A stretch of 475 nt of DNA from Escherichia coli (GTDB lineage Bacteria > Pseudomonadota > Gammaproteobacteria > Enterobacterales > Enterobacteriaceae), in NCBI RefSeq assembly GCF_003334385.1, contig NZ_QOWN01000177.1; one strand, 5' to 3'. The notes under the pieces are model-generated. The model was not told the DNA's origin, did no database searches, and worked only from the letters and a program-made list of their open reading frames with translations. A program made the position numbers and the translations under genes. Shown in pieces: positions 1 to 475 of this stretch (positions are counted from its first letter, which is position 1; every line of letters begins with the position of its first letter).

Positions 1-191
1 CCCTTATCCTTTGTTGCCAGCGGTCCGGCCGGGAACTCAAAGGAGACTGCCAGTGATAAACTGGAGGAAGGTGGGGATGACGTCAAGTCATCATGGCCCT
101 TACGACCAGGGCTACACACGTGCTACAATGGCGCATACAAAGAGAAGCGACCTCGCGAGAGCAAGCGGACCTCATAAAGTGCGTCGTAGTC

Positions 192-242
<51 letters not shown>

Positions 243-256
243 TGGATCAGAATGCC

Positions 257-310
<54 letters not shown>

Positions 311-367
311 GGTTGCAAAAGAAGTAGGTAGCTTAACCTTCGGGAGGGCGCTTACCACTTTGTGATT

Positions 368-402
<35 letters not shown>

Positions 403-410
403 GGGGAACC
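403..410 (+). other. rrs: Helix 45 GGAA tetraloop carrying the KsgA/RsmA dimethyladenosine positions A1518/A1519 (window 407-408)
   Basis: GGGGAACC at 403-410, with A407 and A408 mapping to E. coli A1518 and A1519. The loop is universally conserved. Methylation status cannot be read from DNA. Confidence 0.9.
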
Positions 411-423
411 TGCGGTTGGATCA

Positions 424-428
424 CCTCC
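424..428 (+). other. rrs: Anti-Shine-Dalgarno sequence (CCUCC) at the 3' tail of 16S rRNA
   Basis: CACCTCCTTA at 422-431 ends the mature rRNA. CCTCC at 424-428 is the canonical anti-SD that pairs with mRNA ribosome-binding sites. Confidence 0.95.
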
Positions 429-431
429 TTA

Positions 432-475
432 CCTTAAAGAAGCGTACTTTGCAGTGCTCACACAGATTGTCTGAT
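432..475 (+). other. First 44 nt of the 16S-23S internal transcribed spacer (partial; continues beyond window)
   Basis: Sequence immediately 3' of the mature 16S end, CCTTAAAGAAGCGTACTTTGCAGTGCTCACACAGATTGTCTGAT, matches the start of the enterobacterial rrn spacer as I remember it. It is the 3' trailer of the 17S precursor, which pairs with the 5' leader to form the RNase III processing stem (established knowledge). The spacer tRNA gene(s) lie further downstream, outside the window. Confidence 0.9.

Follow-up and report, generated by a model that had tools for sequence, protein, structure and literature searches.

What are the 44 nucleotides that follow the 16S rRNA gene at the end of this 475-nt stretch of Escherichia coli DNA (the whole of which is hereafter called the window), and do they hold a structure that needs an explanation of its own? 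The first-pass annotation had taken this spacer for ordinary precursor rRNA, and had pointed it out so that it would not pass for unexplained structure. Our analysis leads to the same reading: positions 432-475 are almost certainly the 3' strand of the pre-16S leader-trailer helix, which is cut by RNase III to free the 17S precursor, and the 44 nt are fully explained by textbook rRNA processing. The role of this helix has been settled knowledge since 1978, and a mutagenesis study examined it in detail in 2023.

The gene and its end could be placed to the base, and the following features are used throughout:

1-431, plus strand: 3' part of the 16S rRNA, 431 nt, E. coli positions 1112-1542 (Rfam RF00177, RefSeq and identity to K-12)
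431, plus strand: mature 3' terminus of the 16S rRNA, reading ...GGAUCACCUCCUUA
432-475, plus strand: 16S trailer, +1 to +44, assigned as the 3' strand of the pre-16S leader-trailer helix (hLT) from cofolding, a shuffle control and covariation; the helix is cut off by the window end

The bacterial small-subunit model RF00177 of Rfam matched positions 1-431 (431 bits, model positions 1102-1533 of 1533), with the end of the model falling exactly on window position 431. The same base closes the 16S gene annotated by RefSeq in a 100%-identical operon copy, rrnH of E. coli O157:H7 (locus L001), in which the 16S gene is followed by those of tRNA-Ile, tRNA-Ala and 23S rRNA. These two placements bear out the mature 3' end at 431/432 given by the first-pass annotation. 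Positions 432-475 represent nucleotides +1 to +44 of the 16S-23S spacer, directly 3' of the mature 16S in the rrn operon. Window positions equal 16S positions minus 1111, and nucleotide +33 is position 464, in agreement with the coordinates computed earlier.

The window was retrieved by megablast at 99% identity or more in all 5,426 complete E. coli genomes, with a median of 7 copies per genome. Among the seven operons of K-12 MG1655, rrnG and rrnD share all 475 bases with it and fit equally well as the operon of origin. The rrnH operon shows a single difference, at position 9. Over the last 431 nt of the gene, this is also the one position that sets rrsH apart from the six remaining K-12 16S copies, a common kind of 16S microheterogeneity within a genome. 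Ten of the 37,967 megablast matches lie on plasmid-labelled records, and the record of strain Nissle 1917 (CP007799.1) displays 19 places together with one match split over 658 nt. Both oddities are probably peculiarities of assembly or labelling.

According to the first-pass annotation, the trailer and the 5' leader of one operon should form pairs. We retrieved the 151 nt located directly upstream of the mature 16S 5' end in the identical operon copy (L001 940-1090) and cofolded them with positions 432-475. The trailer divides into the following parts:

432-436, plus strand: +1 to +5 (CCUUA), predicted single-stranded beside the mature 3' end (without partner in both cofolds)
437-452, plus strand: upper, lineage-variable strand of the helix, +6 to +21, with leader -105 to -89 (cofold, test of own versus foreign leaders)
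453-475, plus strand: lower, conserved strand of the helix, +22 to +44, with leader -128 to -106 (cofold, alignment A1)
457-466, plus strand: complement of boxC, CUCACACAGA (pair list, with the boxC sequence taken from PMC10250234)

The minimum free energy (MFE) cofold contains 37 intermolecular base pairs between positions 437-475 and leader -128 to -89. Its lower part is an unbroken run of 23 consecutive pairs (453-475 with -128 to -106), comprising a perfect Watson-Crick run of 17 bp (459-475 with -128 to -112) and one G.U pair at position 458. Above it, 447-451 pair with -105 to -101, 443-446 with -99 to -96 and 437-441 with -93 to -89; C452 is bulged, and positions 432-436 and 442 are predicted to be unpaired. 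A longer spacer, reaching to the tRNA, brought the prediction to 49 intermolecular pairs, with a continuous helix of 26 consecutive pairs from -131:+47 to -106:+22, which goes three pairs past the window end (+44). The boxC complement faces leader -119 to -110, reading TCTGTGTGGG, in the partner strand that contains boxC; boxC itself is UCUGUGUGGG, and the RNase III site overlaps it (PMC10250234). Complementarity between trailer and leader is thus clearly present, as a long duplex that spans the expected RNase III site. The short segment 432-436 is the place of final trimming by YbeY or exonucleases, the assignment of these nucleases being taken from the literature.

The strength of this duplex was evaluated against 1000 dinucleotide-preserving shuffles of the trailer. 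With RNAduplex, the real pair reached -54.1 kcal/mol versus -22.6 +/- 3.3 kcal/mol for the shuffled trailers (best -39.7; z = -9.6), and none of the 1000 was as good; the longest exact complement measured 17 nt, versus at most 11 nt in the shuffles. When windows of 175 nt were slid across the 4.9-kb operon locus, the leader was the only good partner, the next best giving -34.3 kcal/mol.

A trailer acting as an autonomous structured element, such as a hairpin, a terminator, a riboswitch-like element or a small RNA that works independently of the leader, was given hardly any credence. Its one favourable sign is that the MFE structure of the isolated 44-mer forms two tiny hairpins, but this fold is no better than those of shuffled sequences (-5.6 kcal/mol, z = +0.49, 128 of 200 shuffles folding at least as well), and the same bases give the far stronger duplex with the leader described above. 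Scanning the window against Rfam up to E = 1 retrieved small-subunit rRNA only, a tRNA scan of the window returned none, and no promoter-like or terminator-like site was found in positions 380-475. Taken together, the self-fold, the Rfam and site scans and the leader duplex effectively refute an element of this kind.

Other genomes also support the leader-trailer helix. A species-representative genome collection was scanned for the last 25 nt of the 16S rRNA, which gave 120 loci, 58 of them with both a leader of at least 200 nt and a trailer of at least 60 nt. Two of these 120 matches deserve a separate mention. In Pantoea sp. 1.19 (scaffold6.1, locus L044), the 16S end and trailer occur twice on the minus strand, at 1297 and 1581, 284 nt apart, and the first copy continues through an N into internal 16S sequence; this duplication looks like a scaffolding artefact and not like biology. 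A contig from an Aenigmatarchaeota metagenome-assembled genome (L072, 1824-1848) carries the same last 25 nt of the 16S, followed by an unrelated trailer without the CACACAG core, so the 25-nt search pattern is not specific to Gammaproteobacteria.

For the lower part of the helix, 25 distinct gammaproteobacterial leader (-131 to -106) plus trailer (+22 to +47) sequences, many of them related, were anchored on conserved core motifs of our own choice (alignment A1). The organisms represented are Escherichia, Enterobacter, Citrobacter, Pantoea, Tatumella, Photorhabdus, Xenorhabdus, Pasteurellaceae, Orbaceae, Alishewanella/Zobellella-like taxa, Litoricola and several reduced endosymbionts; the set covers Enterobacterales, Pasteurellales, Orbales and Alteromonadales-like taxa besides the endosymbionts. 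Standard pairs fill 95.4% of the cells of this alignment. Sliding the 3' partner by 1-3 columns lowers this share to 34-46%, and this control, which preserves the relatedness of the sequences, is unambiguous for pairing. Changes on both sides were observed in 16 of the 26 pairs (6.5 +/- 1.5 in shuffles) and the covariation score was 0.306 (0.145 in shuffles), none of 500 shuffles being as high on any measure. Pairs 21:32 and 22:31 of the alignment, corresponding to window positions 458 and 457, interchange between G.U and G-C, the same interchange that Warner et al. described in the boxC part (PMC10250234).

The equivalent of positions 432-452 is too variable among taxa to be aligned, and pairing of each trailer with its own or with foreign leaders was tested instead. 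Over 14 sequence types, the energies with the own partner sum to -152.5 kcal/mol versus -85.7 +/- 10.3 kcal/mol for permuted partners, and none of 20000 permutations was as good. This replaces an earlier run on 6 types, for which the clustering was too loose and the test underpowered.

No room is left for a complementarity arisen by chance, or for a protein-coding segment; nothing speaks for either, and we attach no probability to them. The duplex energy and the 17-nt exact complement were reached by none of the 1000 shuffles, and the pairing covaries across taxa. On the coding side, no open reading frame of at least 20 aa occurs within 432-475, and the only one listed nearby (233-424, minus strand) is contained in the 16S gene. 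Shuffles, covariation and the reading-frame scan refute both versions.

A subtler proposal grants the helix but makes boxC pairing secondary, the core CACACAGAUUGUCUGAU owing its conservation chiefly to a protein or another RNA that recognises its sequence. The core is indeed conserved far beyond the needs of pairing: CACACAGATT is found exactly in 92 of the 120 trailers, in gammaproteobacteria, despite a start that shifts from +19 to +31 (+28 in E. coli), and the own role of boxC has been described as unclear (PMC10250234). Against it stand compensatory double changes in or beside the core, at pairs 14:40, 15:39, 16:38 and 18:35, in Litoricola and AT-rich endosymbionts. The function of trailers with a recoded but complementary core has already been tested in part (PMC10250234). 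We consider this proposal very unlikely as the main reason for the conservation, and retain pairing with the leader. If the cut site within the core is constant, the shifting start of the core suggests that some taxa may have a 17S-like 3' extension up to about 12 nt longer than others.

Within K-12, the leader is the same in all seven operons from about -134 to -32, and the pairing result is therefore independent of the operon chosen. Over +1 to +44, these operons vary at two positions only, with the leader unchanged: position 446 is A in rrnH, rrnG, rrnD and rrnB and T in rrnC, rrnA and rrnE, and position 452 is C in rrnH, rrnG, rrnD, rrnC and rrnE, A in rrnA and T in rrnB. The pairs between 1554-1557 (window 443-446) and -99 to -96 received no covariation support in the study of Warner et al. 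(2023, PMC10250234). As A446 is moreover replaced by U in three operons without a change in the leader, the four corresponding pairs of the MFE structure are doubtful. Position 452 being a bulge and position 446 belonging to these unsupported pairs, the operons differ at places that are unpaired or only doubtfully paired.

RNase III cuts leave 2-nt 3' overhangs, on a duplex of about two helical turns, and according to the rules of Zhang and Nicholson its substrates are said to be free of antideterminant base pairs in their proximal and distal boxes. The first-pass annotation stated that the enzyme releases a 17S precursor with about 33 extra 3' nucleotides, which matches the literature, where the 17S RNA exceeds the mature rRNA by 115 nt at the 5' end and by 33 nt at the 3' end (PMC3996153; PMC8708148; secondary citations). 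One more feature results from placing these ends on the predicted pair list:

464-465, plus strand: expected RNase III cut on the 3' strand, between A464 and G465, after +33

Mapped onto the cofold, the partner cut on the leader falls between G-116 and U-115. U-115, the first nucleotide of the 17S, has A462 (+31) as its partner, and the last nucleotide of the 17S is A464 (+33); the two cuts are consequently staggered by 2 bp on the predicted duplex, with a 2-nt 3' overhang formed by C463 and A464. The cut site lies inside the 26 consecutive pairs of the continuous helix and inside the boxC complement (457-466), in agreement with the published overlap between the RNase III site and boxC (PMC10250234). 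Since the published ends need not have fitted the predicted duplex, their register represents a real consistency check, made on predicted pairing, and it agrees with the cut that had been expected near 464-465.

The sequence of events proposed for this segment starts with its transcription within the 30S primary transcript of an E. coli rrn operon. Once out of the RNA polymerase, the trailer would pair with leader -131 to -89, boxC included, about 1.65 kb upstream, and in doing so turn the whole 16S domain into a loop with a helix of about 40 bp at its base. RNase III would then bind this duplex and cut both strands in the boxC:trailer segment, at -116/-115 and +33/+34 (464/465), freeing the 17S pre-rRNA with its 2-nt 3' overhang. 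Of the trailer, 33 nucleotides (432-464) would then be left, to be removed during late 30S assembly by YbeY and/or RNases II, R and PH and PNPase, and the 5' side would be trimmed by RNase E and RNase G. For the final 3' step, YbeY and, redundantly, RNase II, RNase R, RNase PH and PNPase have been reported (PMC9159920; PMC10250234), consistent with the YbeY and 3'-to-5' exonucleases invoked by the first-pass annotation.

Published mutagenesis gives this helix a broader function. When it is disrupted, active 30S subunits are no longer formed (Warner, Bundschuh & Fredrick 2023, PMC10250234). In the same study (PMC10250234), truncation of the trailer to 1589 or 1584 was harmless, truncation to 1579 or 1574 cost about 75% of the activity, and truncation to 1569 or shorter abolished it; the most critical pairs were those between -113 to -89 and 1548-1570, equivalent to window positions 437-459. 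Compensatory changes rescued mutations of boxC and likewise those of the complementary trailer segment, and the effects of the helix persisted in a delta-rnc background (PMC10250234). The role of the hLT goes beyond that of a substrate for RNase III; this extends the earlier account a little and does not contradict it.

Several observations concern the sequence just beyond the window (L001 2676-2688, +45 to +57) and the facing leader (L001 945-960, -146 to -131). Nucleotides +45 to +47 vary among operons (GAA, AGA or AGG), and every version can pair with UUU at -131 to -129. In spacers of the Ile/Ala type, +51 to +57 (UGAGCAG) are predicted to pair with CUGCUCU at -146 to -140, the 5' part of boxA. 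Of 54 distinct loci, 18 have the motif GAGCA no more than 36 nt past the helix strand, versus about 3% expected by chance, and spacers of the Glu type have AAGCA or TAGCA at this place. Nucleotides past 1584 are dispensable for activity (PMC10250234). The A/U alternative at 446, the C/A/U alternative at 452 and the GAGCA-type motif (about +50 to +57) could provide an operon-specific tuning of helix stability, of RNase III kinetics or of NusB/NusE release from boxA, a proposal that we regard as improbable. The operon-specific differences may equally be neutral variation at unpaired or dispensable positions.

The interpretation of positions 432-475 as the trailer strand of the leader-trailer helix concerns a feature that is already known; no observation contradicts it, and the finding is correct and ordinary. 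The 44 nt after the 16S have a bookkeeping value only and do not warrant a flag as unexplained structure, while the helix itself is biologically important, being essential for 30S biogenesis and the entry point of RNase III.

Two known systems are directly comparable. The model of a leader-trailer helix for pre-16S processing by RNase III is reportedly due to Young and Steitz in 1978. The E. coli hLT of that model and of the later mutagenesis (PMC10250234) corresponds to the window in organism, sequence and boxC-containing leader partner, and likewise in the published cut at +33 and the critical nucleotides 1548-1570 (437-459). The MFE structure presented here keeps the four pairs -99 to -96:1554-1557 of the older models, which lack covariation support according to Warner et al. 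Otherwise nothing substantial sets the two apart: the window contains the 3' strand alone and ends at +44, so that the last three pairs at the base of the continuous helix are missing.

The second system is the leader-trailer helix of pre-23S rRNA in the same operons, which, like that of pre-16S, arises from flanking complements, presents RNase III with a long duplex to cut and matters for subunit biogenesis (PMC10250234; PMC8708148). It is distinguished from the pre-16S helix by its other sequences, its position on the flanks of the 23S and its length of 27 bp. The RNase III site flanking the 23S is said to have been described by Bram, Young and Steitz in 1980. The cuts leave 3 or 7 extra nt at the 5' end and 7 extra nt at the 3' end, and the pre-23S helix, unlike its pre-16S counterpart, partly survives as H1 of the mature 23S rRNA.
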